Origin: Nostoc punctiforme PCC 73102
GTDB lineage: Bacteria; Cyanobacteriota; Cyanobacteriia; Cyanobacteriales; Nostocaceae
NCBI RefSeq assembly: GCF_000020025.1
Contig: NC_010628.1
Span: 2,160,001 to 2,192,000, forward strand
Direction: 5' to 3'
DNA length: 32,000 nucleotides
The position numbers were made by a program, and so were the translations under genes. The notes below the pieces were generated by a model that was not told the DNA's origin, did no database searches, and saw only the letters and a program-made list of their open reading frames with translations. Shown here piece by piece: positions 2,631-30,076 of the stretch. Position 1 is the stretch's first letter; each line of letters opens with the position of its first letter.

Positions 2631-3311
2631 TCAAACCCTTAATTGAGTTACCGCAATATTGCCGGAAAAACATACATCCACATCACTACCAGGGGTGCGA
2701 TCGCGTTTGCCATATTCTCCTACATAATAAAAATCATCGCCTTCAATTCGATAGTTGACAGGCAAAGGTTTGCTACAGGCTTGGCAAAACACTATCTCAG
2801 GATGTGGTTCTCCTGGTAGCAGATTCGGCAAGTTCACATTCCAAAAGCTTCCCGGTTCTAGGGGACGCTTGAGTAAGTCCGCTAAAACTTCAGCTGTCAA
2901 TTTGGCAGCCAGATCCCAATCAAAATTCTGCTTGGCTTTGCGATAGTGGGAAATAGCAATTCCGGGAATACCGTGCATTGCGGCTTCCCGCACAGCAGCC
3001 ACTGTGCCAGAAATGTAGACATCGACTCCCAAGTTGCCCCCAGCGTTGATACCTGAAAGCACAAATTTGACATCTGCATTAATTTGTGTTAACGCAATTC
3101 TCACACAATCGGCGGGAGTGCCTGCGATCGCATATTCAGTCTCAGAACGTTGTTGGAGGTTGATGGCGCGAGTGGTAGTAACTTGATGTCCACAGCCAGA
3201 CTGATGATCTACAGGAGCAGCGATAATAACATTTTTGCCATTTACAGCTTTGATTAGAGCTTTTATACCGGGGGCATCAATGCCGTCATCGTTAGTTAAA
3301 ATTATAGTCAT
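2631..3311 (-). CDS. surE: 5'/3'-nucleotidase SurE
   Basis: N-terminus MTIILTNDDGIDAPGIKAL carries the SurE NDDG signature. SGINAGGNLG and ISGTVAAVREA motifs are present. 226 aa. Confidence 0.9.
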   Translation of the reverse strand: MTIILTNDDGIDAPGIKALIKAVNGKNVIIAAPVDHQSGCGHQVTTTRAINLQQRSETEYAIAGTPADCVRIALTQINADVKFVLSGINAGGNLGVDVYISGTVAAVREAAMHGIPGIAISHYRKAKQNFDWDLAAKLTAEVLADLLKRPLEPGSFWNVNLPNLLPGEPHPEIVFCQACSKPLPVNYRIEGDDFYYVGEYGKRDRTPGSDVDVCFSGNIAVTQLRV

Positions 3312-3511: not shown

Positions 3512-5035
3512 TTAAATTTGCCAAAAGTTAGCGATCGCTTGCGGTAATGGCAAAATAATTACAATCAACAAAGCCATTGCCAGTAATCCCCAAATATCAC
3601 GTTTGTTATCCAATTCAGTGACATCATTGAGTGCAGGCTCATCAATCAACGGCATAAATAATAAGATAATCGCCCACATCAAAAATTCTTCCCGGATTAA
3701 CGAAAGTAATAGCAAGAGGAGGCGAGCCACTTGACCGATTATAATTGCAACTCGTTGGCCAAACATTGCATGGACAATGTGGCCTCCATCTAGCTGTCCC
3801 ACAGGCATTAAATTTAACGCCGTCACAATTAGTCCGATAAAACCAGCTACTGCAACTGGATGCAAATCAAGGGCTGATTTTGCTGTTAACTGACTTCCCA
3901 AGGCTAGCTTCGACAGTAGCGCTAGTAAGATGGAATATTTGGGATTAAGGGCATCAGGATTCAAAAATCGGGTTTTTTCTTCAATCAGAGGAACCACCTC
4001 AGAATGAGCCAAGCCCCATATTAATAATGGCAAGGTAACAACAAAGCCTGCAAGTGGTCCAGCGATACTAATGTCAAATAATGCTTTGCGGTTGGGAATG
4101 GGACTACGCATCTGAATAAATGCACCAAAAGTTCCCAAAAAGAAAGGCATTGGAATAAAGTAAGGCAACGTCGAGCGAATTTTGTAGAATTTAGCCGTCA
4201 AATAATGCCCAAGTTCGTGAATACCTAAAATAGTCATTAATCCTAAAGCATAAGGTAATCCTTTGAATAGGACATCTGGGTTAGATAGAACTTTGAATAA
4301 AGAGCCAATTTCCCATAGAGGCGGAAGAGAAGCACCAGCAATTTCCACTCCCACTAAGGTAGTAGTTATCAAAGTAGCTACTACTAGTAGAAGTGCTAAT
4401 CCTGGTCGAGTTAAGCGTTCTTGTTCGCGTCGTGGTGTATTTCTGTCTTTAGCAGCCTGAATATTAGGAACCAGCACAAAGAAAGGTTTGTCATTTAAAC
4501 CTTCTTGAAAGATCAACACGAAGCGATCGCCAAATTGTGCTTCAATATTAGTCTTAATCTGTTGGTAAGCGTTGCTGGCTTTAGTTCGCAACTGACCCCG
4601 GCAAATTACGGCTTGTGGTCGATACTCAATATTTTGAACGTAATATACAGACCAAGGAAAACAATTTCGCAGTTGAGTTTCTTCTGTTGGCTCAATGGGA
4701 CGCACTAGTGGTTCTGGGGTAGGCTGGATAATCGGCTGTGATTCTGAGGCTTGGGCTGGAACTTCGGTTTGCGTATCTCTTGGCACTCGCCGGCCTCCTA
4801 GAAACAATATCCAGTACAACACTGTGCAGACAAATAACGACGAAACAATCAGCGCTGGTGGCGGAGGTTGTTTCGTTCCATATATCAGCGTCCATCCACT
4901 TAACAAGAATGCTGGTGTCATTAAAACCAGCCACAACAACCATACTGGCGTTCGAGTGATGTGAGCGACGCTGTGCTGCACCATTAGATAAGTAGCTAGC
5001 CCCAGTAGGAGAATAAACAGAAACCAAAATGCCAT
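3512..5035 (-). CDS. Site-2 protease family (peptidase M50) membrane metalloprotease
   Basis: HELGHY (HExxH) lies in a TM segment, followed by NLMPVGQLDGGH (LDG motif); the protein is polytopic. The track start 5119 is TTG. In-frame ATGs are at 5086 and 5035, and I chose 5035 (MAFWFLF...). The start is uncertain. Confidence 0.85.
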   Translation of the reverse strand: MAFWFLFILLLGLATYLMVQHSVAHITRTPVWLLWLVLMTPAFLLSGWTLIYGTKQPPPPALIVSSLFVCTVLYWILFLGGRRVPRDTQTEVPAQASESQPIIQPTPEPLVRPIEPTEETQLRNCFPWSVYYVQNIEYRPQAVICRGQLRTKASNAYQQIKTNIEAQFGDRFVLIFQEGLNDKPFFVLVPNIQAAKDRNTPRREQERLTRPGLALLLVVATLITTTLVGVEIAGASLPPLWEIGSLFKVLSNPDVLFKGLPYALGLMTILGIHELGHYLTAKFYKIRSTLPYFIPMPFFLGTFGAFIQMRSPIPNRKALFDISIAGPLAGFVVTLPLLIWGLAHSEVVPLIEEKTRFLNPDALNPKYSILLALLSKLALGSQLTAKSALDLHPVAVAGFIGLIVTALNLMPVGQLDGGHIVHAMFGQRVAIIIGQVARLLLLLLSLIREEFLMWAIILLFMPLIDEPALNDVTELDNKRDIWGLLAMALLIVIILPLPQAIANFWQI

Positions 5036-6093: not shown

Positions 6094-9000
6094 ATGAGTG
6101 CAAAAGTTGATGGAACTGTAAGGATCGCTGGCTACCAAATTATAGAGCAACTCTATTCTGGTTCTCGGACTCAAGTGTATCGGGCAATACGAGAATGCGA
6201 TCGCCAACCAGTCGTCATCAAGCTCTTAAAACGAGAATATCCAAGTTTTAGCGAATTAGTACAGTTTCGCAACCAATATGCGATCGCTAAAAACCTAGAT
6301 ATTCCCAGTATCATTAAACCTTACAGCCTAGAACCCCATCACAATGGCTATGCCCTAGTTATGGAAGACTTTGGTGGCATCTCCTTGCGGCAATTTACCC
6401 AAAGACGACCACTGAGCTTAGAGGAATTCCTACCCATTGCCTTGCAACTAATAGACACTTTACACCAGTTGCATCAACAGCGCGTCATTCACAAAGATGT
6501 CAAGCCAGCTAATATCCTGATTCATCCTGAAACCAAAAAAATTAAGCTAATCGACTTCAGTATTGCCTCGCTGCTACCACGAGAAACCCAGGAAATTCAA
6601 AGTCCCAACGGACTGGAGGGAACCCTAGCGTATTTGTCGCCAGAGCAAACTGGACGGATGAACCGAGGCATTGACTACCGCAGCGACTTTTATTCATTAG
6701 GTGTGACTTTCTTTGAACTACTGAGTGGACAACTGCCTTTTACATCTCACGATCCGATGGAGTTGTTACATTGTCATATCGCCAAACAGCCTGACTCTAT
6801 CTGTAATCTCAACCCGGAAATCCCCTTGATGTTGGGAGAGATTATTTGCAAGTTGATGGCAAAGAATGCCGAAGACCGCTACCAAAGTGCGATGGGACTC
6901 AAGCATGACTTAGTGTTCTGTTTAGAACAATGGCAAGAAACAGGCAAACACACTTGGTTTGATTTAGGACAGCGCGATATCAGCGATCGCTTTCTCATTC
7001 CTGAAAAACTCTACGGACGGGAGCAGGAAATAGAATGCTTACTGGAGGTATTTGGGCGGGTTGCCAATGGTGCAGTGGAACTGATGCTGGTGGCTGGCTT
7101 CTCTGGCATTGGTAAAACTGCCGTGGTGAATGAAGTGCATAAGGTTATCGTTCGCTGGAACGGCTACTTCATCAAAGGAAAGTATGACCAGTTCAACCGC
7201 AATATTCCCCTGTCTGCTTTTGTACAAGCTTTCCGGGATTTGATGGGACAGTTGCTCACTGAAAGCGACACTCAGCTGGAACAGTGGCGAAAAAAAATTC
7301 TGTCTGCAATCTCTGAAAGTGGACAGGTGATAATTGAAGTGATTCCAGAATTAGAACGGATTATTGGCACGCAACCGCCAGTACCAGAATTATCGGGTAG
7401 TGCTGCACAGAACCGCTTCAATCTGCTGTTTGTCAAATTTATTCAGGTATTCGCTACAAGAGAGCATCCGTTAGTAGTGTTCCTCGATGATTTACAGTGG
7501 GCAAATTTGGCATCTCTCAATTTAATAAGGCTGTTAATGGGTGAAACCTTAAAGGGTTATCTGTTAATTATTGGCGCATACCGTGATAATGAAGTGTTTG
7601 CGGCTCATCCGTTAATGGTGGCCCTGGAAGAGATTGAGAAGGGAGCCACCGTCAGCACCATTACATTAGCTCCTTTGAATCAAACAGATGTGAATCGTTT
7701 GATTGCCGATACATTGAGTTATTCAACAGAAGTTGCCCTGCCGTTAACCGAGCTAGTTTATCAAAAAGCCAAAGGTAATCCGTTTTTTACAATCCAGTTT
7801 CTCAAGGCATTACATGAAGATGGACGAATTACCTTTGATTGGGATACAGGTTTGTGGCAGTGCGATCTGGTGCAAGTACCCAGACGCACGGCAGCTTGTC
7901 TTCAGACATCGCTTTCTTTAACGGATGATGTCGTTGAGTTTATGGCAATTCAACTACAAAAGTTGCCGCTCGAAACTCAGGAAATTCTGAAATTGGCAGC
8001 CTGTATCGGTAATCAATTTGATTTGGCGACATTGGCGATCGTTTTTGAACAGTCTCCAACCCAAACAGCAGCAGTTTTGTGGAAAGCGTTGCAAGAAGGG
8101 TTAGTTTTACCACATTGTGATATCTATAAGTTTTATCAAGAGTCAGAAGCAATAAGAGATTCTTCTGACTTGGGGATTCTGGATTCTGGTTCCTGTGTTT
8201 ACACATTTCTGCACGATCGCGTCCAACAAGCAGCATATTCTCTCATCCCAGAGGAGCAAAAACAGGCAACTCATCTAAAAATTGGCCAGTTACTTCTGAG
8301 TAATACCCCCGAAAGCAACCGGGAAGAACGCATTTTTGAAATTGTCAGTCAACTTAACGTTGCGGCTGAATTGATTGCCCAACCCGCAGAACGTCAAGCA
8401 TTAGCGCAATTTAACCTGATGGCAAGCCGCAAAGCCAAGGCAGCGATTGCTTACACTGCCGCCTGCAAATATGCCCAAGTGGGCATTGGGCTACTCGCCC
8501 AAAACAGTTGGCAGCATCAGTATGAGTTAACCCTAGCACTCCATCAAGTTGCCACAGAAGCTGCCTATCTGAGCGGTGATTTAGAACAGATGGCAGCCAA
8601 TGCTCATCTTGTCTTAAATCACGCCAAAACTCCATTAGATAAAATCAGCGTCTATGAGGTGAAGATTGAAGTATTCACTGCTCAGGGTTATTTTGCCGAA
8701 GCGATCGCAGCAGCACTTACCATTTTAAAGCAATTGGGAGTGGAACTACCCACAGTGCCTACCCAGGAAGATGTGGCAGTGGCCTTTAGTACCGTCTTAG
8801 ATGTAATTGGAGAGCGATTCCCTGCCGAGTTGCTCAACCTCAGCGATGCGAGGGATGCAAACATCCTGGCAGCAGCTCGAATTTTGACATCAGTAGCACC
8901 TTGCGCTTATCTGTTCCAGCCACAGTTGTATTTACTGGTGATTTTAAAAAAGGTTTATTTATCTGTCGTCTATGGTAATGAATCAACCTCGACCTTTAGC

Positions 9001-12000
9001 TATGCCTCTTATGGAATATTGATGTGCGGTGTATTCAAAAACGTCGAATTAGGTTATGAATTCGGTCAGTTAGCCCTCGACCTGCGATCGCGCTATCAAA
9101 ATTCCGAATTGAAAGGGAAAACTTTATTACTAGTCTACTTATACACAAGGCATTGGAAAATCCATCTGCGGGAGTTATTACAACCCTTGCAGACAGCCTA
9201 TTGTAGTTGTTTAGATGTAGGCGATTTGGCTTTTGCGGGTTACTCTGCGTATAATTACGGTTTTTACTCCTATTTTTCAGGACAGAATTTAACACAGCTA
9301 GAGCCGGAAGTTGCTGATTATTGTGAAGCGCTCAAGCACCTCAAGCAAAATCTAGCTCTGAACTATTCCCAATTAATTCGACAAATTTTGCTGAATTTAA
9401 TGGGAGAAGCGGATGATGTTGTGGTGTTGAGCGGTACAGCCTACAATGAACAGCATCAACTTCCATTACATGAAGCAGCAGGCGATCGCACCGGATTAGC
9501 ATTGCTGTGGATTAACAAACTGGTTGTATCGTATTTGTTTTCCGAGTTTGAACAAGCCGTAGAACAAGCTAGGCAAGCGAGACAATATTTAGACGCTATT
9601 ATTGCTTTTTTATATGTACCTATCTTTCATTTCTATGATTCTTTAGCTCAACTAGCATGGTTTGAGCAACTCTCAGCCCTAGAACAGCAGCAAATGAAAG
9701 AATGCATTACTGCTAACCAAGAAAAACTTAACTACTGGGCTACCCATGCGCCAATAAATTTTCGACACAAATTTGATTTGGTGGAAGCCGAGCGTTATCG
9801 AGTTTTGGGCAATCGGGCAGAAGCAATTGAATGTTACGATCGCGCCATCATTGGAGCCAAAGAACAAGGCTATATTCAAGAAGAAGCACTAGCCAATGAA
9901 TTAGCCGCCAAATTCTACCTCGACTGGGGCAAAGAGCAGATTGCTCAGTCATACATGACTCAAGCCTACTATGGTTATGCTCGTTGGGGTGCGAAAACCA
10001 AAGTCGTCGATCTAGAAAAACGCTATCCCCAATTACTTGCCCCCATTCTTCAGCAAAGTCCTTCTCCTCTCTCAACTAACGAAACTATCTTTGCCTTGGG
10101 GAGTGTCACCTGCACCAGTTCTGCCAATTCCAGTAGTAGCAGCATTTCTGTTGCTCTAGATTTAGCTAGCATTCTCAAAGCTTCCCAAACCCTATCTGGC
10201 GAAATCGAACTAGAAAAACTGCTTTCAGTATTGCTGCATATCGTCATTGAAAATGCCGGAGCAGATAAGTGTGTGTTCATGCTTTTAGAATCAGGGCGTT
10301 TGCTAATTCAGGCGTTAGCACAGCTTTCTCTTGGTATCGTATCTATAGAGAACAAGGGAATTACCCATATTGATTTTTACCCAAGGTTGCTGAATCCACA
10401 GCCCATTGAAGACTCTCAGGATGTGCCAGTTGGCTTAATTAATACCGTCAAACGCAGCTTAAAACCAACGGTAATTATTGATGCCACAGTGCATCCTCAG
10501 TTCATCAACGATCCTTATATTCAGCAACAGCAGCCCAAAAGCATCTTGTGCAGCCCGATATTACATCAAGGGAAGTTGCTGGGCATATTGTATCTGGAAA
10601 ATAATCTGACAAATGGAGCCTTTACAAGCGATCGCGTCGAACTGCTGAACTTGCTTTGCGCTCAAGCGGCAATTTCTTTGGTGAATGCGCGACTTTATCA
10701 AAATTCCCAAAACTATGCTCAACAGTTGACGCAATCTCTAGCAAAATTACAGGCTAGTGAAATCCGCTTCCAAAATTTGGCGAATAATATTCCTGGTATG
10801 GTATACCAATTCCGTTTGGCGGCCGACGGTTCTATTTCAACACCCTACGTTAGCTCTGGCTGTTTGGACTTGTATGGCTTAGAGCCAGAGTTAGTGATGG
10901 CAGGGATACACAGCCTTTACGCTATGAATCATCCTGACGATCAACCAGCTATTGCAAAAGCGATCGCTTACTCTGCCAAAACTCTGACACCATTTGAGCA
11001 AGAATGGCGCATCATCCTGCCTTCAGGAACCATAAAATGGATTCAATCTGCGGCTCGGCCAGAGCGACAAGCCGATGGCGCAATCTTATGGGATGGGGTG
11101 GTAATTGATATTAGCGATGTCTACGACGAGCTTTGCTTACGCAAACAGGCCGAAGCATCTCTAGCCAAAGAACGAGAGTTCTTGAATGCCATTATTCAAA
11201 ATATTACAGATGGGATTGTTGTTTGTGACCCTAATGGAAATTTGATCTTATTCAATAACGCAACTCGTGAGTTTCATGGCTTACCAGTAGAATCATTGCC
11301 ACCAGAGCAATGGGCAGAACACTTCGATCTCTATCAACCTGACGGTCAAACACCCCTATCAACAACAGAAATTCCTTTGTTTCGCGCCTTGCAAGGGGAA
11401 ATAGTTGAAAATGCAGAAATCGTAATTGCACCGAAGCATGGTTCTAAGAGAATTTTGTTAGCAAGCGGACAAGCGATCGTCGATTTTTTGGGCAACAAAC
11501 TTGGTGCAGTAATTGTGATGCGAGATATTAGCGATGTTTACAACGAGCTTCGCTTACGCAAACAGGCAGAACTTACTTTACAGCAAAAATCACTTGATTT
11601 GCAACAAGCGCTAAATGATTTACAAAACGCCCAATTACAAATAGTTCAAAGTGAAAAGATGTCTGCACTGGGTAACTTAGTTGCTGGTGTCGCTCACGAA
11701 ATGAATAATCCCCTCGGTTTTATTGCTGCCAGTCTCAAACAAGCTAAACCCACTATTGCTGATATTATCGAACACTTGAAACTCTATCAAGAAACTTTAC
11801 CCAACAAGAACGATCAAATCAAAGATCATGCGGTCGAAATTGACTTAGATTATAGCTTAGAAGACTTGCCAAAGATGATTGATTCAATGTCTATGGCGTG
11901 CGACAGGTTAAAAAAAATCAGCACCAGTTTAAGAACTTTCTCTCGTGCAGATCAAGACTACAAAGTGCCTTTCAATATCCACCAAGGTATTGATAGCACA

Positions 12001-12456
12001 ATTTTAATTTTGAAACATCGTCTAAAGGCTAATGAACTACGCCCTGCCATTGAAGTTGTCACCAACTACGGTAATTTACCTCAAATTGAATGTTTCCCAG
12101 GGCAACTCAATCAGGTGTTTATGAATATTTTAGCAAATGCGATTGATGCTTTAGATGAGTCCACTCTTGAGCGGAGTTTGGCAGAGATTCAAGAAATTCC
12201 TAACCAAATTATAATTACAACCTCAGTCGAAAATCATCTAGTTAAAATTGCCATTGCTGATAATGGGAAAGGGATGAGCGAAGAAGTAAAATCAAAGATT
12301 TTCAACCATTTATTTACGACAAAAACTGTCGGTAAAGGTACGGGTTTGGGGTTGGCGATCGCTCGGCAAATTGTTGAAGAAACTCACAACGGTAAATTGA
12401 TTTGTAACTCGGTTCTGGGTCAGGGTACAGAATTCATTATTGAAATTCCAGTATAA
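6094..12456 (+). CDS. Multidomain sensor: Ser/Thr protein kinase, P-loop (STAND-like) NTPase, helical/TPR-like repeats, GAF, PAS, PAS, histidine kinase (no receiver domain)
   Basis: Kinase motifs: HKDVKPANIL (6490-6513), DFS (6553-6561) and GTLAYLSPE. Walker A is GFSGIGKT (7096-7119), with Walker-B-like VVFLDDLQWA. A long helical region spans about 8200-10000. GAF is about 10165-10700, and the two PAS domains are about 10765-11115 and 11165-11535. H-box VAHEMNNPL has its His codon at 11695-11697, with N-box NILANAIDA and G-box GKGTGLGLAI. Single uninterrupted 2120-codon ORF. Confidence 0.9.
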   Translation: MSAKVDGTVRIAGYQIIEQLYSGSRTQVYRAIRECDRQPVVIKLLKREYPSFSELVQFRNQYAIAKNLDIPSIIKPYSLEPHHNGYALVMEDFGGISLRQFTQRRPLSLEEFLPIALQLIDTLHQLHQQRVIHKDVKPANILIHPETKKIKLIDFSIASLLPRETQEIQSPNGLEGTLAYLSPEQTGRMNRGIDYRSDFYSLGVTFFELLSGQLPFTSHDPMELLHCHIAKQPDSICNLNPEIPLMLGEIICKLMAKNAEDRYQSAMGLKHDLVFCLEQWQETGKHTWFDLGQRDISDRFLIPEKLYGREQEIECLLEVFGRVANGAVELMLVAGFSGIGKTAVVNEVHKVIVRWNGYFIKGKYDQFNRNIPLSAFVQAFRDLMGQLLTESDTQLEQWRKKILSAISESGQVIIEVIPELERIIGTQPPVPELSGSAAQNRFNLLFVKFIQVFATREHPLVVFLDDLQWANLASLNLIRLLMGETLKGYLLIIGAYRDNEVFAAHPLMVALEEIEKGATVSTITLAPLNQTDVNRLIADTLSYSTEVALPLTELVYQKAKGNPFFTIQFLKALHEDGRITFDWDTGLWQCDLVQVPRRTAACLQTSLSLTDDVVEFMAIQLQKLPLETQEILKLAACIGNQFDLATLAIVFEQSPTQTAAVLWKALQEGLVLPHCDIYKFYQESEAIRDSSDLGILDSGSCVYTFLHDRVQQAAYSLIPEEQKQATHLKIGQLLLSNTPESNREERIFEIVSQLNVAAELIAQPAERQALAQFNLMASRKAKAAIAYTAACKYAQVGIGLLAQNSWQHQYELTLALHQVATEAAYLSGDLEQMAANAHLVLNHAKTPLDKISVYEVKIEVFTAQGYFAEAIAAALTILKQLGVELPTVPTQEDVAVAFSTVLDVIGERFPAELLNLSDARDANILAAARILTSVAPCAYLFQPQLYLLVILKKVYLSVVYGNESTSTFSYASYGILMCGVFKNVELGYEFGQLALDLRSRYQNSELKGKTLLLVYLYTRHWKIHLRELLQPLQTAYCSCLDVGDLAFAGYSAYNYGFYSYFSGQNLTQLEPEVADYCEALKHLKQNLALNYSQLIRQILLNLMGEADDVVVLSGTAYNEQHQLPLHEAAGDRTGLALLWINKLVVSYLFSEFEQAVEQARQARQYLDAIIAFLYVPIFHFYDSLAQLAWFEQLSALEQQQMKECITANQEKLNYWATHAPINFRHKFDLVEAERYRVLGNRAEAIECYDRAIIGAKEQGYIQEEALANELAAKFYLDWGKEQIAQSYMTQAYYGYARWGAKTKVVDLEKRYPQLLAPILQQSPSPLSTNETIFALGSVTCTSSANSSSSSISVALDLASILKASQTLSGEIELEKLLSVLLHIVIENAGADKCVFMLLESGRLLIQALAQLSLGIVSIENKGITHIDFYPRLLNPQPIEDSQDVPVGLINTVKRSLKPTVIIDATVHPQFINDPYIQQQQPKSILCSPILHQGKLLGILYLENNLTNGAFTSDRVELLNLLCAQAAISLVNARLYQNSQNYAQQLTQSLAKLQASEIRFQNLANNIPGMVYQFRLAADGSISTPYVSSGCLDLYGLEPELVMAGIHSLYAMNHPDDQPAIAKAIAYSAKTLTPFEQEWRIILPSGTIKWIQSAARPERQADGAILWDGVVIDISDVYDELCLRKQAEASLAKEREFLNAIIQNITDGIVVCDPNGNLILFNNATREFHGLPVESLPPEQWAEHFDLYQPDGQTPLSTTEIPLFRALQGEIVENAEIVIAPKHGSKRILLASGQAIVDFLGNKLGAVIVMRDISDVYNELRLRKQAELTLQQKSLDLQQALNDLQNAQLQIVQSEKMSALGNLVAGVAHEMNNPLGFIAASLKQAKPTIADIIEHLKLYQETLPNKNDQIKDHAVEIDLDYSLEDLPKMIDSMSMACDRLKKISTSLRTFSRADQDYKVPFNIHQGIDSTILILKHRLKANELRPAIEVVTNYGNLPQIECFPGQLNQVFMNILANAIDALDESTLERSLAEIQEIPNQIIITTSVENHLVKIAIADNGKGMSEEVKSKIFNHLFTTKTVGKGTGLGLAIARQIVEETHNGKLICNSVLGQGTEFIIEIPV
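8141..8195 (+). repeat. Hairpin plus heptamer tandem repeat embedded in the kinase CDS
   Basis: agtcagaag (8141-8149) pairs with cttctgact (8162-8170) around a 12-nt loop. This is followed by gattctg gattctg gttcctg (8175-8195). Related gagtcagaag / cagaattc strings occur in the intergenic region at 21551-21590. Confidence 0.45.
11116..11142 (+). repeat. 21-nt in-frame element with flanks, copy A (GAT|gtctacgacgagctttgctta|CGC)
   Basis: Encodes VYDELCL inside DISD-RKQAE. Removing 11119-11139 restores GCGATCGC. Confidence 0.65.
11533..11559 (+). repeat. 21-nt in-frame element with flanks, copy B (GAT|gtttacaacgagcttcgctta|CGC)
   Basis: Encodes VYNELRL inside DISD-RKQAE. Matches copy A at 24 of 27 positions. 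Removing 11536-11556 restores GCGATCGC. Confidence 0.65.
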
Positions 12457-19800: not shown

Positions 19801-19945
19801 CGCTTACCTGAATTGTGGGATAATCCACACTGGGTAAATCGCTGATTGGCAGCAAGCGATAACTCATAAAACCGAAAATCAAAATTGCCGTCATCACCAG
19901 AGTCGTCATGATCGGACGACGGATAAATGGTTCCGAAAGGTTCAT
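16841..19945 (-). CDS. RND efflux permease (HAE1, AcrB/MdtB-like), proximal paralogue
   Basis: 1034 aa. N-terminus MNLSEPFIRRPIMTTLVM and VVDDAIVMLENI motif. The start ATG overlaps the adaptor stop (ATGA at 19942-19945). Confidence 0.93.
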   Translation of the reverse strand: MNLSEPFIRRPIMTTLVMTAILIFGFMSYRLLPISDLPSVDYPTIQVSASRPGASPETMAASVARPLEKQFSSIAGLDSLNSTSTLGQTQITLQFNLSRNIDDAAQDVEAAISGASGQIATDLPNPPTYSKVNPADQPILYLYLDSPTLPLSQVDNYAETYLAQKLSTINGVAQVAVYGSQKYAARIQLDPQQLAARQIGLDQVATAIQQGNVNLPTGSLSGNHKNFTVQTNGQLEDAAAYRQLIVSYKDGMPIYLNQLGRIIDSVENDKVASWYNNTRAIILTIQRQPGTNTVQVVDTIKNLLPKLREQIPASVEIGILYDASQSIRDSVDDVRFTLILTIALVILVIFIFLRNLSATVIPSLALPVSLIGTFAVMYLLHYSLDNLSLMALTLSVGFVVDDAIVMLENIVRHIEMGERPLEAALNGSREIGFTILSMTLSLVAVFIPMLFMSEVLGRLFHEFAVTIAVAILVSGFVSLTLTPMLCSRFLRPVDHANQSRLYQASEYVFDRFLGLYDWSLKKVLKYHRTTMILSVFLLAVTVGLLVIVPKGFIPSEDTGQITGITQAAEDASFDNLVQHQQTVANLIRQDPNVDAVNSNIGAGASASGGGAAVAANSGSLFIRLKPRSQRQLGADEIVQNLRTKLATVPGIQVFLQNPPAIPIGAQQSTGLYQVALQSSDVKLLQEYVPQLVTKMKDMTELQDVNSDLQFASQIQIDIDRDKASTYGITAEQIENTLRSAYGSYQVSTIYAATNEYQVILELAPQYQEDINALLTLYINSSTGVAVPLKTFAKLSQGVSPLMVNHNGRMNAATISFNLAPGVSLGNANEEIQKLIDRVIPASISTSFQGASQVFQSSLPSLGLLLAIAILVIYLILGILYEDFIHPITILSGLPSAGFGALLTLIIFHVELNVYSFIGIILLVGIVKKNGIMMVDFAIVAQREELKKPSEAIYQACLVRFRPIMMTTMAALMGTLPIAIGFGAGSESRRPLGIAVVGGLVFSQILTLYLTPVFYIYMESWRKKLNQVKLRRVFS

Positions 19946-21519
19946 GATTCACCCCCGCCTGACTTCGGGGATTCTCCCCCTTGCTCCTTGGTCACTGAGC
20001 GCAGTCGAAGTGTGCCCCCTGCCCCTCTTCTTGACTTCGAGGAATTTCCATTTGAGTCATTGCCGCTTGTTTTAATGCGGATTTTGCTACCCGAAATAAG
20101 ATTCGCTTGACCATCGGTGACAATTTTATCGCCTGGTTGCGGCCCTTTTTGAACCACATCTAGTCCATCAATGGTGCTGCTAATTGTAACTGGCACATTT
20201 TCCACCGTCATGTCTGGCTTAACTACAAACACAAACTGGCCATCCGGACCATTCTGCACGGCTTGGCTGGGGACAACCGTTGCATTCGGTTGTTCAGTCA
20301 GCGTTAGCGTTGTGTTCACAAATTGACCAGGAAACAAGTGTCCCTGAGCGTTGTCGAAGTCGCCAATCAGTTGAATTGTCCCTGTGGTGTTATCGACCGT
20401 ATTATTGACAAAAGTCAAAACACCTGGTGCGGGATGAGCTTGATCGTTGGGGAACGTCACATCTACCTTCAGCCTGCCATTCTGCATATACTTTTGTACC
20501 TGGGGCAGATTTGTTTCGGGAATGGAAAAAGCAACTTGAATCGGGCGAATTTGGGTTAGGGTAACAAGCGGAGTCGTACTGTTAGCTTGCACCACATTGC
20601 CCTGAGTCACCAGAATATTGCCAGCGCGGCCATCAATCGGCGCATAAATTTTGGCGTAAGATAATTGCACTTTGGTATTGTCTAATGCTCCCCGATCGGA
20701 ACGGACAACGGCTTGAGCATTCGCGATCGCAGCTCGATCGCCTTGGACAACTGCTCCAGCATTAGTCAGCGCCACGCGATCGCTTTTCAAAACTGCTTCA
20801 GCATTAGCGATCGCTTCTCGATCTGCTTGCAGAGTTGCTGTAGCCGATTTGCTGTTAGAAACGTATTGCTGTGCTTGATCTAAACTAATCGCGCCCTTTT
20901 TGTACAATGCACTATAGCGATCGCTCTGTCCCTGAGCAAATTCTGCTTGCGCTCGATCTTTAGCTAAATTCGCCTGAGCTTGTCGCACCAAAGCTTGGTC
21001 TTTGACTAAAGTGGCTCTAGCTTGGTCTACCTGACCCAAATCTCTAGTTAATGCATCTCTGGCTTGTTGTACCGAGGCTTGGTCTTTTGCTACAGTACCT
21101 TGAGCTTGCTGGATTGCAGCAGTTTGCGATCGGTCATCTAGGGTAAACAAAAGTTGTCCCTTTTTCACATCTTGACCTTTCTTAAAATAAACCCCAATAA
21201 TCCGTCCGCTAGCTTCGGGCGTAATCGATACCGTAGAACCCGATTGCACATTCCCGATCGCCTGCAATTGCACCGGAACCGTTTTTTGTGTCACCATTGC
21301 CACGGTTACAGGTGTAACTTGCTGTTTATTGCGCCCAGATTTTTCAGCTTTGTCTGACTTGGCTGCACCCGCATGGATACCAAAAAAATCCAACCCAGCT
21401 AGCAACAGCACGCCCAAAATTACCAAACGAATCTTTTTCTTTTTTGGCGATCGCGGTAACTTCGGCTCTATACTGTTCTCGTTTTCAGTCAAACTCTCAC
21501 TAGTAATTTCATGGTTCAT
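19942..21519 (-). CDS. RND periplasmic adaptor (membrane fusion protein) with unusually long coiled-coil hairpin
   Basis: Contains an N-terminal TM anchor, a lipoyl/barrel-type segment (GRIIGVYFKKGQDVKKGQLLFTLD ... IYAPIDGRAGN) and C-terminal beta domains. The track start 21531 is GTG. The ATG at 21519 is preceded by GGAGG (21525-21529, minus strand) with a 5-nt spacer. Confidence 0.9.
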   Translation of the reverse strand: MNHEITSESLTENENSIEPKLPRSPKKKKIRLVILGVLLLAGLDFFGIHAGAAKSDKAEKSGRNKQQVTPVTVAMVTQKTVPVQLQAIGNVQSGSTVSITPEASGRIIGVYFKKGQDVKKGQLLFTLDDRSQTAAIQQAQGTVAKDQASVQQARDALTRDLGQVDQARATLVKDQALVRQAQANLAKDRAQAEFAQGQSDRYSALYKKGAISLDQAQQYVSNSKSATATLQADREAIANAEAVLKSDRVALTNAGAVVQGDRAAIANAQAVVRSDRGALDNTKVQLSYAKIYAPIDGRAGNILVTQGNVVQANSTTPLVTLTQIRPIQVAFSIPETNLPQVQKYMQNGRLKVDVTFPNDQAHPAPGVLTFVNNTVDNTTGTIQLIGDFDNAQGHLFPGQFVNTTLTLTEQPNATVVPSQAVQNGPDGQFVFVVKPDMTVENVPVTISSTIDGLDVVQKGPQPGDKIVTDGQANLISGSKIRIKTSGNDSNGNSSKSRRGAGGTLRLRSVTKEQGGESPKSGGGES

Positions 21520-21547
21520 CAGAACCTCCACTGGATTTTAGTTTATT

Positions 21548-28720: not shown

Positions 28721-30076
28721 TTATATTTTATGAGGAAGTCGAACTGTAAATGTACTGCCCAGCTTTGGTTGACTTTGAACATGAATACTGCCTTTGTGTG
28801 CTTGGACGATCGCAATAGCGATCGCTAATCCCAATCCCGAACCGCCAGAGCTACGAGAGCGTAAGCGCAGCCCGTCGTAGGCATCGCTATCAACTCGGTA
28901 AAAGCGATCAAAAATTCGCTTTTGATGTTCTAGAGCAATACCAATTCCTGTATCTTGAACTTTAATAACTGCGTAGCGTTCGCTATCTTCTAAAAAAACT
29001 GTAACTTTTCCCCCGCTAGGCGTTGCTTGAATTGCATTAACAATTAAATTTGAAATTAAACGATAAAGCTGTTCTTCATTTCCCATAACGTACAGTTTTT
29101 TGGCAAAGAGCGCTTGCTTTGAGAGGCTTACCTTCGTCTCAATTGCTAAAAATGCTAGTTCCTCAACTAAGTCGCTAATTAAATCGTTCAAACAGCAAGG
29201 ATGATATTCTTCTGTTAGTTGTTTTTGATCTATCTTCGTTAAAAGCAACAAATCTCCTACTAATTGTGAAAGACGGCGATTTTGGCGTTTGAGAACATCC
29301 AAAATTCCGTTACTTGATTTTGGTTCTTGTTGTAACTTGATAGCAGCTTCAATCGTAGAGTGCATCGCTGCTAAAGGTGTACGAAACTCATGGGCCGCAT
29401 CAGCAGTAAATTGTTGCATTTGTTGGTAAGAATAATATACAGGTTGCATTGCCCTTCCTGCCAACCACCAACTAGACAAAGCAACAAAAATCATTGAAAT
29501 TGGCAACCCCAACACCAAAGTTAATCTCAAATAAGCAAGATGTTGGTCTAAATCAGTAAGGCTTCGCGCCACTTGTAGATAACCCGAAAGCTGATTTTGA
29601 GTATACACAGGTAAAGTGATTTGGCGGTATCGAGTGCCAGAAGAATCTGTTATAATTTGCCAATGTTGTGATAATGAAATAATCGGTAATTTATCAAATT
29701 GTATACCTGTACTTGCAAATACTTTTCCCGAACTATCCAATAACCTTATATAGTAATTAACTTGATTACTCGCCTCTTTTATTGATTGTTTAATGACTGC
29801 TGTTTTAGGCAAACAGTTTTTTTGATCTACACATAATTCTAAAGAAAATTCTTTAGCAAGGCTTTGTAATTGTCCCGGTTGCTGCCAAGCCGATTCAATA
29901 CCTTTATGAAGTGCGTTTGCTACTGATTGTAATCCCTGATCTATGGTTTCATGATAGGCATGAGCAACAACACTATAAACACCAAGACCAGATAGCCCTA
30001 AAATCCCACCCATTACTAGGCTATACCAAACTGCTAGGCGGAACCGAGTTTGGTGGAAAATTGGATTGCGTTCCAT
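28721..30076 (-). CDS. Sensor histidine kinase, OmpR-partner type (2 TM, HAMP, HisKA, HATPase)
   Basis: H-box AAHEFRTPL, N-box LISNLIVNAIQAT, G1 VQDTGIGI, G2 GGSGLGLAIA. Two hydrophobic segments flank a periplasmic region of about 150 aa. Confidence 0.9.
   Translation of the reverse strand: MERNPIFHQTRFRLAVWYSLVMGGILGLSGLGVYSVVAHAYHETIDQGLQSVANALHKGIESAWQQPGQLQSLAKEFSLELCVDQKNCLPKTAVIKQSIKEASNQVNYYIRLLDSSGKVFASTGIQFDKLPIISLSQHWQIITDSSGTRYRQITLPVYTQNQLSGYLQVARSLTDLDQHLAYLRLTLVLGLPISMIFVALSSWWLAGRAMQPVYYSYQQMQQFTADAAHEFRTPLAAMHSTIEAAIKLQQEPKSSNGILDVLKRQNRRLSQLVGDLLLLTKIDQKQLTEEYHPCCLNDLISDLVEELAFLAIETKVSLSKQALFAKKLYVMGNEEQLYRLISNLIVNAIQATPSGGKVTVFLEDSERYAVIKVQDTGIGIALEHQKRIFDRFYRVDSDAYDGLRLRSRSSGGSGLGLAIAIAIVQAHKGSIHVQSQPKLGSTFTVRLPHKI
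28859..28885 (-). repeat. 21-nt in-frame element with flanks, copy C (GAT|gcctacgacgggctgcgctta|CGC on the minus strand)
   Basis: Encodes AYDGLRL between FYRVDSD and RSRSSGGSGLGL. Matches copy A at 23 of 27 positions. Removing 28862-28882 restores GCGATCGC. Confidence 0.65.

Follow-up and report, generated by a model that had tools for sequence, protein, structure and literature searches.

The octamer HIP1 (highly iterated palindrome 1, GCGATCGC) and the small dispersed repeats (SDRs) of cyanobacteria are the closest described setting for three 21-nucleotide (nt) segments in a 32,000-nt stretch of Nostoc punctiforme PCC 73102 DNA (NC_010628.1, positions 2,160,001 to 2,192,000; hereafter the window). 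Two of the segments lie in the gene of a 2120-amino-acid (aa) multi-domain sensor kinase and the third lies in the gene of the histidine kinase RppB. N. punctiforme PCC 73102 was reportedly surveyed by Elhai, Kato, Cousins, Lindblad and Costa (Genome Res 18:1484, 2008), who are said to have favored an RNA intermediate and to have predicted for SDR5 a hairpin common to SDR4 and SDR6 and backed by compensatory changes. In papers citing Elhai et al. 2008, SDR5 is a 21-nt repeat that lies inside HIP1, inserted between nucleotides 3 and 4 of the octamer, and HIP1 is called "an insertion site for SDR5 in the Nostocaceae lineage"; one paper states that no SDRs were found outside the Nostocaceae. Elhai (2015) suggested directed cutting at HIP1, and the literature gives no settled function for HIP1 after 30 years.

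The three segments of the window are very probably copies of SDR5, each of which arose by exact insertion at GCGAT^CGC in a HIP1 site. They are filed as SDR5 because they agree with it in length, target, insertion bond and host group: all three copies, and the indel that separates filled from empty orthologous sites, measure 21 nt; the copies read GCGAT-N21-CGC where empty alleles read GCGATCGC; on the other strand, where the empty octamer splits as GCG^ATCGC, the junctions (GCG^TAAGC...GTAGAC^ATCGC) fall between nucleotides 3 and 4 and contain no base ambiguity; and the host is N. punctiforme PCC 73102, with matches mostly in the Nostocales, as the known range in the Nostocaceae or heterocystous cyanobacteria predicts. 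The element and its targeting of HIP1 are therefore already known (SDR5, 2008).

In the 2120-aa kinase gene, the DNA reads GCGAT, then gtctacgacgagctttgctta (11119-11139), then CGC at the first site, and GCGAT, then gtttacaacgagcttcgctta (11536-11556), then CGC at the second. Both inserts are in frame in the open reading frame (ORF) 6094..12456, giving DISD-VYDELCL-RKQAE and DISD-VYNELRL-RKQAE. The protein possesses Pkinase (Ser/Thr), AAA_16, GAF, PAS_3, PAS, HisKA and HATPase_c domains (Pfam), of which PAS_3 spans aa 1585-1668 and PAS spans aa 1696-1812, so that each insert is found at a C-terminal PAS boundary. The 48-nt arms that contain the inserts are identical at 44 of 48 nt, whereas similarity between the two PAS domains is below detection by BLASTP (E = 0.67). 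A first-pass annotation of this DNA had located and read both inserts correctly to the base, had remarked on the roughly 48 nearly identical nt within otherwise diverged PAS domains, and had noted that removal of the 21 nt restores GCGATCGC and DISDRKQAE, a state that exists at the second site in orthologues. A degenerate 29-mer comprising the element and both HIP1 halves occurs 3 times in the window with up to 3 mismatches, versus 0.00 expected from shuffles, and a chance origin of the split-HIP1 29-mers is rejected on these counts. Intact HIP1 octamers number 32 in the window, versus 0.28 expected.

Orthologues of the PAS-PAS-kinase part were collected and their DNA was aligned (collected loci are designated by L numbers), and a neighbor-joining tree was computed from 12 loci and 889 ungapped columns, without bootstrap. 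The closest orthologue, that of Nostoc sp. LEGE 12447 (L042, approximately 5% diverged over the 889 columns), has exactly 21 nt fewer at the second site and reads ...ATTAGCGAT^CGCAAACAA..., an intact HIP1 encoding DISDRKQAE. The second site is also empty, with HIP1 intact (AGCGAT^CGCAAA), in L094, L013, L121, L125 and the Aetokthonos outgroup (L126 and L127, two near-identical assemblies), and L124 reads GCGAGCGC at this place. An SDR5-like 21-mer occupies it in the window and in N. punctiforme NIES-2108 (L117), and a degraded one does so in L062. Two other orthologues have different 21-mers: GCTTATCGACAAGCTACACAA in L123 (1545-1565, peptide AYRQATQ) and AGGGCGCGGCTTGAAGCCGAA, with a CGGCTT/AAGCCG hairpin inside, in L122 (881-901, peptide RARLEAE); no further copies of either were found in the collected locus DNA. 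Filled alleles are spread over the tree, whose outgroup is empty. The alleles differ by the exact presence or absence of 21 nt at GCGAT^CGC, without target-site duplication. Judging from their distribution, this one orthologous HIP1 has evidently gained 21-nt inserts at least five times, or lost them precisely even more often, and the fillings, at least five in number, apparently involved three different 21-mers.

The first site is filled in 8 of 10 orthologues. L117 and L122 have 21 nt fewer there and read AATG(G/C)CAAA, not HIP1, which is consistent with a 21-nt deletion one base off the insertion boundaries, that is, an imprecise loss that would have kept one base of the element. Copy 1 is taken to be the older insertion because it is present in 8 of 10 orthologues, and copy 2 to be a young one because it is absent, with HIP1 intact, from L042 and five other orthologous loci. 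The two kinase copies are thus evidently separate events of different ages, of which the first predates the divergence of most Nostoc orthologues and the second is younger than the split, at approximately 5% divergence, from Nostoc sp. LEGE 12447. In L123, L124, L125 and L126/L127, annotation divides the counterpart of the 2120-aa kinase into several shorter genes (Pkinase / AAA_16 / PAS-histidine kinase), and in Aetokthonos an ISL3 transposase gene is found directly upstream of the PAS-histidine kinase remnant; the kinase locus seems to be prone to fragmentation, or else the split genes are assembly or frameshift artefacts.

The third copy (28859-28887 with its HIP1 halves, reverse strand) was absent from the first-pass annotation. 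Its context, FYRVDSD-AYDGLRL-RSRSSGGSGLGL, is the ATP-lid segment of RppB. Among 120 listed relatives of RppB, this segment was found in 100, of which only 2 (N. punctiforme and one other cluster) possess the 7 residues; in the remaining 98 nothing is added at this place, and most of them read FYRVDRDRSRTSGGSGLGL. The third copy, by this comparison, is evidently a lineage-specific insertion. The coordinates of all features are given in Table 1.

Table 1. Host genes, very probable SDR5 copies and their split HIP1 sites in the window.
Feature	Position	Strand	Remarks
Host gene 1: 2120-aa multi-domain sensor	6094..12456	+	ORF and Pfam
Very probable SDR5 copy 1	11119..11139	+	GTCTACGACGAGCTTTGCTTA; peptide VYDELCL, aa 1676-1682, right behind DISD after PAS_3
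Split HIP1 site 1	11114..11142	+	GCGAT 11114-11118 and CGC 11140-11142 around copy 1
Very probable SDR5 copy 2	11536..11556	+	GTTTACAACGAGCTTCGCTTA; peptide VYNELRL, aa 1815-1821, junction of the second PAS and the long helix to DHp/HisKA
Split HIP1 site 2	11531..11559	+	GCGAT 11531-11535 and CGC 11557-11559 around copy 2
48-nt direct repeat	11107-11154 and 11524-11571	+	Element plus PAS-linker codons GAT ATT AGC GAT / CGC AAA CAG GCN GAA
Very probable SDR5 copy 3	28862..28882	-	GCCTACGACGGGCTGCGCTTA; GGG subtype, peptide AYDGLRL, in frame, RppB ATP-lid loop
Split HIP1 around copy 3	28859-28887	-	Degenerate 29-mer match
Host gene 2: 451-aa histidine kinase RppB	28721..30076	-	100% identical to Nostoc punctiforme RppB

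The window also contains a repeat with a 42-nt period (20703-20823, 2.9 copies, 73% matching) within the ORF 19942..21531 of the reverse strand. Its consensus contains HIP1 (GCGATCGC), which is intact in 2 of 3 copies, and the CGATCG core is present in each unit.

The element is widely dispersed. A scan of one genome per species with the pattern GCGATGYYTACRACGRGCTNYGCTTACGC identified the same 21-mer in a split-HIP1 context, with unrelated flanks, at no fewer than 120 other loci. Nearly all loci among the matches listed belong to Nostoc; other Nostocales among them are Calothrix, Fortiea, Scytonema, Heteroscytonema, Aulosira, Brunnivagina and Goleter, and there are a few metagenome-assembled genomes (MAGs) with other labels. 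Scan and plasmid matches together are dominated by Nostoc, Trichormus, Calothrix and Tolypothrix. In 987 kb of collected DNA, GCGAT-N21-CGC occurs 178 times, versus 34-78 times for other spacer lengths, and 136 of the 178 are within 6 mismatches of the consensus GTCTACGACGAGCTTCGCTTA, the copies taking the form GTCTACGACG(G/A)GCT(A/T)CGCTTA; the GCGAT/CGC flank was built into both the scan pattern and the expression used for this census, so the fact that all 136 split a HIP1 says nothing about exclusivity. Clustering by flanks reduced the copies to 87 distinct sites (42 coding, 45 non-coding), and the DNA flanking filled sites is unrelated from one site to the next, even directly beside the HIP1 halves.

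Exact-consensus copies of the GAG subtype described below are found at PAS linkers in the MAG contigs L020, L080 and L105 (also L022, L027, L078 and L108), which are labelled Coleofasciculus, Allocoleopsis, Planktothrix or Leptolyngbyaceae, or are unclassified. L020, L080 and L105, with a GC content of 46-50%, match none of the collected Nostoc loci closely; their copies are probably genuine, and the contigs probably derive from outside the Nostocales, from Coleofasciculaceae. Two other contigs share 90-92% identity with Nostoc contigs, L057 under the label Chroococcales and L075 under the label Acetobacteraceae, and were set aside as probably misbinned.

Differences between coding and non-coding copies were identified. 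GAG CTT (peptide VYDELRL) is present in 73 of 90 coding copies, and the GAG subtype (including GAG CTG) in 37 of 42 distinct coding sites versus 14 of 45 non-coding ones (Fisher p = 7e-8), a contrast inflated by ascertainment and shared ancestry. Among non-coding copies GGG CTA prevails, which would read VYDGLRL, and 31 of the 45 distinct non-coding sites have a codon other than GAG. GGG-type copies are few in genes and are found there in likely loops: the ATP lid of RppB, a WD40-like protein (L068), and an ORF resembling a Ser/Thr kinase in L055, where the in-frame variant GCCTCCGGCGGGCTACGCCTA (3812-3840) precedes the catalytic-loop motif HRDIKPQN by a few residues. Although 4 of the 6 frames through the element are open (by eye), 81 of the 90 copies in long ORFs use the sense xDR frame (xGC GAT^...^CGC), and D[IVLM][ST]D^RK junctions hold 55 copies. 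Intact HIP1 octamers of the same DNA are distributed over the AIA frame (373), the xDR frame (274, of which only 16 are D[IVLM][ST]DRK), the RS frame (85) and non-coding DNA (199), the frame contrast being subject to the same inflation. Among bystander copies, PAS-linker HIP1 sites are 3 filled versus 16-17 empty, non-coding sites 6 versus 199, other xDR sites 2 versus approximately 257, and sites in the AIA or RS frames 0 versus 458. The peptide drifts among orthologous copies (VYDELCL, VYNELRL, VYEELHL, VYDDLRL); the length of the insert, rather than its sequence, seems to matter.

Two loci show other arrangements of the element. In L025 and L038, which represent one orthologous site, a copy in the opposite orientation provides the TAA that ends a 1.7-kb ORF. 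A related multi-kinase in L085 (approximately 3230-3270) has the layout GAF-PAS1-SDR5-DHp (DHp, dimerization and histidine phosphotransfer domain), with a single copy and without PAS2; its left flank is that of site 1 in the window and its right flank is that of site 2. This layout could be due to a deletion by recombination between linker copies, or to ancestral absence of PAS2.

An AlphaFold2 model (mean predicted local distance difference test score, pLDDT, 52), of which only the site-2 helix was used, has the second insert at the start of a helix (model residues 271-328) that runs into DHp, with block-mean pLDDT of 73 for residues 271-280 and of 81 and 88 for the next two blocks. Linkers from LOV or PAS domains to DHp are coiled coils in which lengths of 7n keep the response and lengths of 7n+1 invert it (PMC6798134). 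Since 7n preserves and 7n+1 inverts the response, an insert of 7 codons would fall in the only length class expected to be tolerated at a PAS linker. As for the nucleic acid, the GGG type, on the strand written here, folds as (((..((((.....))))..))), with the left HIP1 half paired with an internal CGC, and the stem is kept in the variants GCCTGCGGCGGGC, GCCAGCCTTTGGC and GCCTGGGTTAGGC. Across 33 distinct 29-mers, 91.8% of cells pair, versus 32-58% when the partners are slid, and at two of the pairs both sides show changes. Pair 8-16 is lost in the GAG type and is regained with a T at position 3 of the element, as in copy 2 of the window. There is modest support, from these comparisons, for a hairpin in the element.

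The following mechanism may be proposed. The element, too small to encode anything, would be non-autonomous, and would fold into a short hairpin with a 4-bp stem and a 5-nt loop, which the left HIP1 half would close by pairing with the internal CGC. A trans-acting activity would recognise or cut HIP1 at CGAT^CG, the position at which PvuI-type enzymes cut, and would place the element there; a hairpin-guided route via a single strand, such as IS200/IS605 elements or repetitive extragenic palindromes (REPs) with their REP-associated tyrosine transposases (RAYTs) use, would be in keeping with empty sites that are clean and free of duplication. Transposition in the manner of miniature inverted-repeat transposable elements was considered and rejected, there being no duplication (GCGAT^G...A^CGC versus GCGAT^CGC) and the ends GTCTAC and GCTTA not being inverted repeats. 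Survival in ORFs would be favored by a length of 21 nt, or 7 codons, and by the open frame xGC GAT^...^CGC, with purifying selection leaving copies within genes mainly where 7 extra residues are harmless. At D-I-S-D^R-K-x-x-E behind a PAS core, the insert would form the first two turns of the helical linker, and as the linker would be longer by one heptad, its coiled-coil register to the next domain should stay. The Glu subtype (GAG, VYDELRL) is the one observed in helices, at the start of the helix behind a PAS core, and the Gly subtype (GGG, VYDGLRL) the one observed in non-coding DNA and in flexible loops such as the ATP lid of RppB.

Tentatively, SDR5 of the GAG subtype may be a mobile in-frame heptad cassette that is preferentially acquired or retained at the HIP1 of D-I-S-D^R-K behind PAS cores, extends the linker by two turns, has struck one linker repeatedly, extends beyond the Nostocales, and, where copies are paired, perhaps offers portable homology for deletion or swapping of PAS domains. 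Several points weigh against the account of SDR5 insertion and linker extension given above. The assignment to SDR5 is a judgement from length, target, insertion point and host, and the sequences cannot by themselves tell gains from precise excisions. The locus sample was chosen for its content of the element and includes many orthologous sites, by which the enrichment statistics are inflated, and the less biased bystander counts (3 versus 16-17; 6 versus 199) are small. The PAS1 region was modelled poorly (pLDDT below 50), and the heptad argument is an indirect one, the insert appearing, by eye, to be without the hydrophobic pattern of the helix downstream. The covariation of the hairpin is modest and the structure tested was derived from one of the sequences; fold energies of the 29-mers were no better than those of shuffles, one variant excepted.

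A rather less probable interpretation is that the coding GAG form is a selected peptide module, retained or preferentially acquired, with a two-turn longer PAS output helix or a VYDELRL surface changing the signalling. Such a module would be in keeping with the higher bystander occupancy of PAS-linker HIP1 (3 of approximately 19) than of non-coding HIP1 (6 of approximately 205), with the five or more fillings of one orthologous site, and with the exact-consensus PAS-linker copies in contigs that are probably not from Nostocales. However, the free drift of the peptide among orthologous copies suggests no constraint on its sequence, the numbers are small and come from a sample biased by ascertainment, and non-coding copies decay beyond detection, so that coding occupancy looks inflated.

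It is improbable that gene conversion or short-homology recombination over the flanks GATATTAGCGAT and CGCAAACARGCNGAA spread a 7-codon cassette from one PAS linker to another, including from site 1 to site 2 of the window. The conserved flanks with their 44/48 identity would agree with this, as would the overwhelming location of coding copies at PAS linkers, where even the synonymous CTT codon is held in common; moreover, site 2 of the window has CAG like site 1, where the empty allele of L042 has CAA, and L085 resembles a recombinant joined at the linker copy. On the other hand, at no fewer than 40 distinct coding sites the indel has its edges precisely at GCGAT^CGC, the adjoining codons vary (GAT/GAC, ATT/ATC/ATA, AAA/AAG, then CAA, CTT, CGA, CAC or GTT), and 45 distinct non-coding sites have unrelated flanks. 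The base profile of PAS-linker flanks is the same at filled and empty sites, albeit in a small sample, which argues against spread by flank-homology conversion. Copies 1 and 2 differ at 3 of 21 positions even though copy 2 is younger than a 5% split, polymorphisms 10-20 nt to either side of site 2 are like those of L042 and unlike those of the filled allele L117, and site 2 also carries two unrelated 21-mers (L122, L123). Site 1, finally, is old and shared where site 2 is young. Flank-homology conversion is mostly rejected on the strength of the exact HIP1 edges and of flanks that differ right up to HIP1.

That the 7 residues are ancestral to PAS linkers, through an old domain duplication or motif, and that empty alleles arose by deletion or precise excision, is very hard to sustain: 8 of 10 orthologues have the insert at site 1, L117 and L122 look like an offset 21-nt deletion (AATG^GCAAA) and not HIP1, and precise excision could account for any single empty site, but the two PAS domains have no detectable similarity, site 2 is empty with a perfect HIP1 in the Aetokthonos outgroup and most of the ingroup while its filled alleles are scattered (on which grounds old domain duplication is rejected), among the homologues listed, those of other cyanobacterial orders and of phyla outside the cyanobacteria have D-I-[ST]-[DE]-R-K without an insert wherever the motif was found, the same 21-mer is present in non-coding DNA, and 98 of the 100 listed RppB relatives that yielded the segment are without the 7 residues.

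Exact insertion of SDR5 into HIP1 therefore remains the preferred interpretation. It is also that of the first-pass annotation, which had argued for insertions of a tiny element into HIP1 rather than an old duplication, and which would have been contradicted had the 7 residues been universal at these linkers and the 21-mer present nowhere else; intact HIP1 at site 2 in L042 and other orthologues, and the 120 or more other loci, coding and non-coding, point the other way. Gene conversion, which it had offered beside insertion, has become the less likely of the two given the exact HIP1 edges, the differing flanks and the unequal ages. As to whether the phenomenon had been described before, the 21-nt repeat that splits HIP1 has been published as SDR5. 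On the fixed frame and orientation, literature searches for VYDELRL and its variants, or for HIP1 with PAS and in-frame, found nothing relevant, and in the literature short of the original 2008 SDR5 paper no mention was found of a coding, GAG, one-frame or PAS-linker heptad bias, of a repeatedly filled orthologous HIP1, or of probable Coleofasciculaceae copies.

The residual interest thus lies in the pattern of PAS linker, heptad and subtype, in the repeatedly filled site, and in the probable copies outside the Nostocales. If true and undescribed, the heptad cassette would be a natural generator of variation in linker length and domain number in cyanobacterial sensor kinases. The copies offer a very clean natural case in which a 21-nt repeat enters, and possibly leaves, a set octamer in genes, with filled and empty alleles approximately 5% apart. 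Such closely related alleles make approachable both the question of how HIP1 is recognised or cut and the question of what a 7-residue, register-preserving extension of a PAS output helix does in signalling.

Compared with known systems, the copies resemble SDR5 (Elhai et al. 2008, as represented in later papers) in their 21-nt length, their many dispersed copies, the HIP1 bond between nucleotides 3 and 4 and their heterocystous hosts. The one contrast with that literature is that exact copies are found in probable Coleofasciculaceae contigs, whereas one paper gives none outside the Nostocaceae.

Rickettsia palindromic elements (RPEs) were reportedly described by Ogata et al. in 2000 as selfish repeats that are found in frame within protein-coding genes. 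Like RPEs, the element is a small repeat that survives in ORFs as an in-frame peptide at tolerant places and is present or absent among orthologues; unlike it, RPEs are approximately 100-150 bp, palindromic, confined in description to Rickettsia and without an octamer target, SDR5 having 21 nt and being strictly targeted to HIP1.

The likeness to REP/RAYT and IS200/IS605 systems is one of manner only, and consists of a tiny hairpin repeat, a fixed short target, seamless empty sites and the absence of duplication. As a rule REPs lie outside genes and work as doublets, whereas the present element has one weak hairpin; N. punctiforme is among the RAYT-containing genomes whose REPINs (REP doublets forming hairpins) were analysed. 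In protein terms, the nearest parallel is the PAS/LOV-DHp linker of the YF1 type (PMC6798134): the insert stands where the linking helix begins, which leads at site 2 to DHp and at site 1 to the next PAS, and it adds exactly 7 residues, a length class by which engineered kinases retain their signal polarity. The YF1-type length variants were engineered, whereas those of the N. punctiforme kinase, known from sequence, are natural and would be the work of a mobile repeat.

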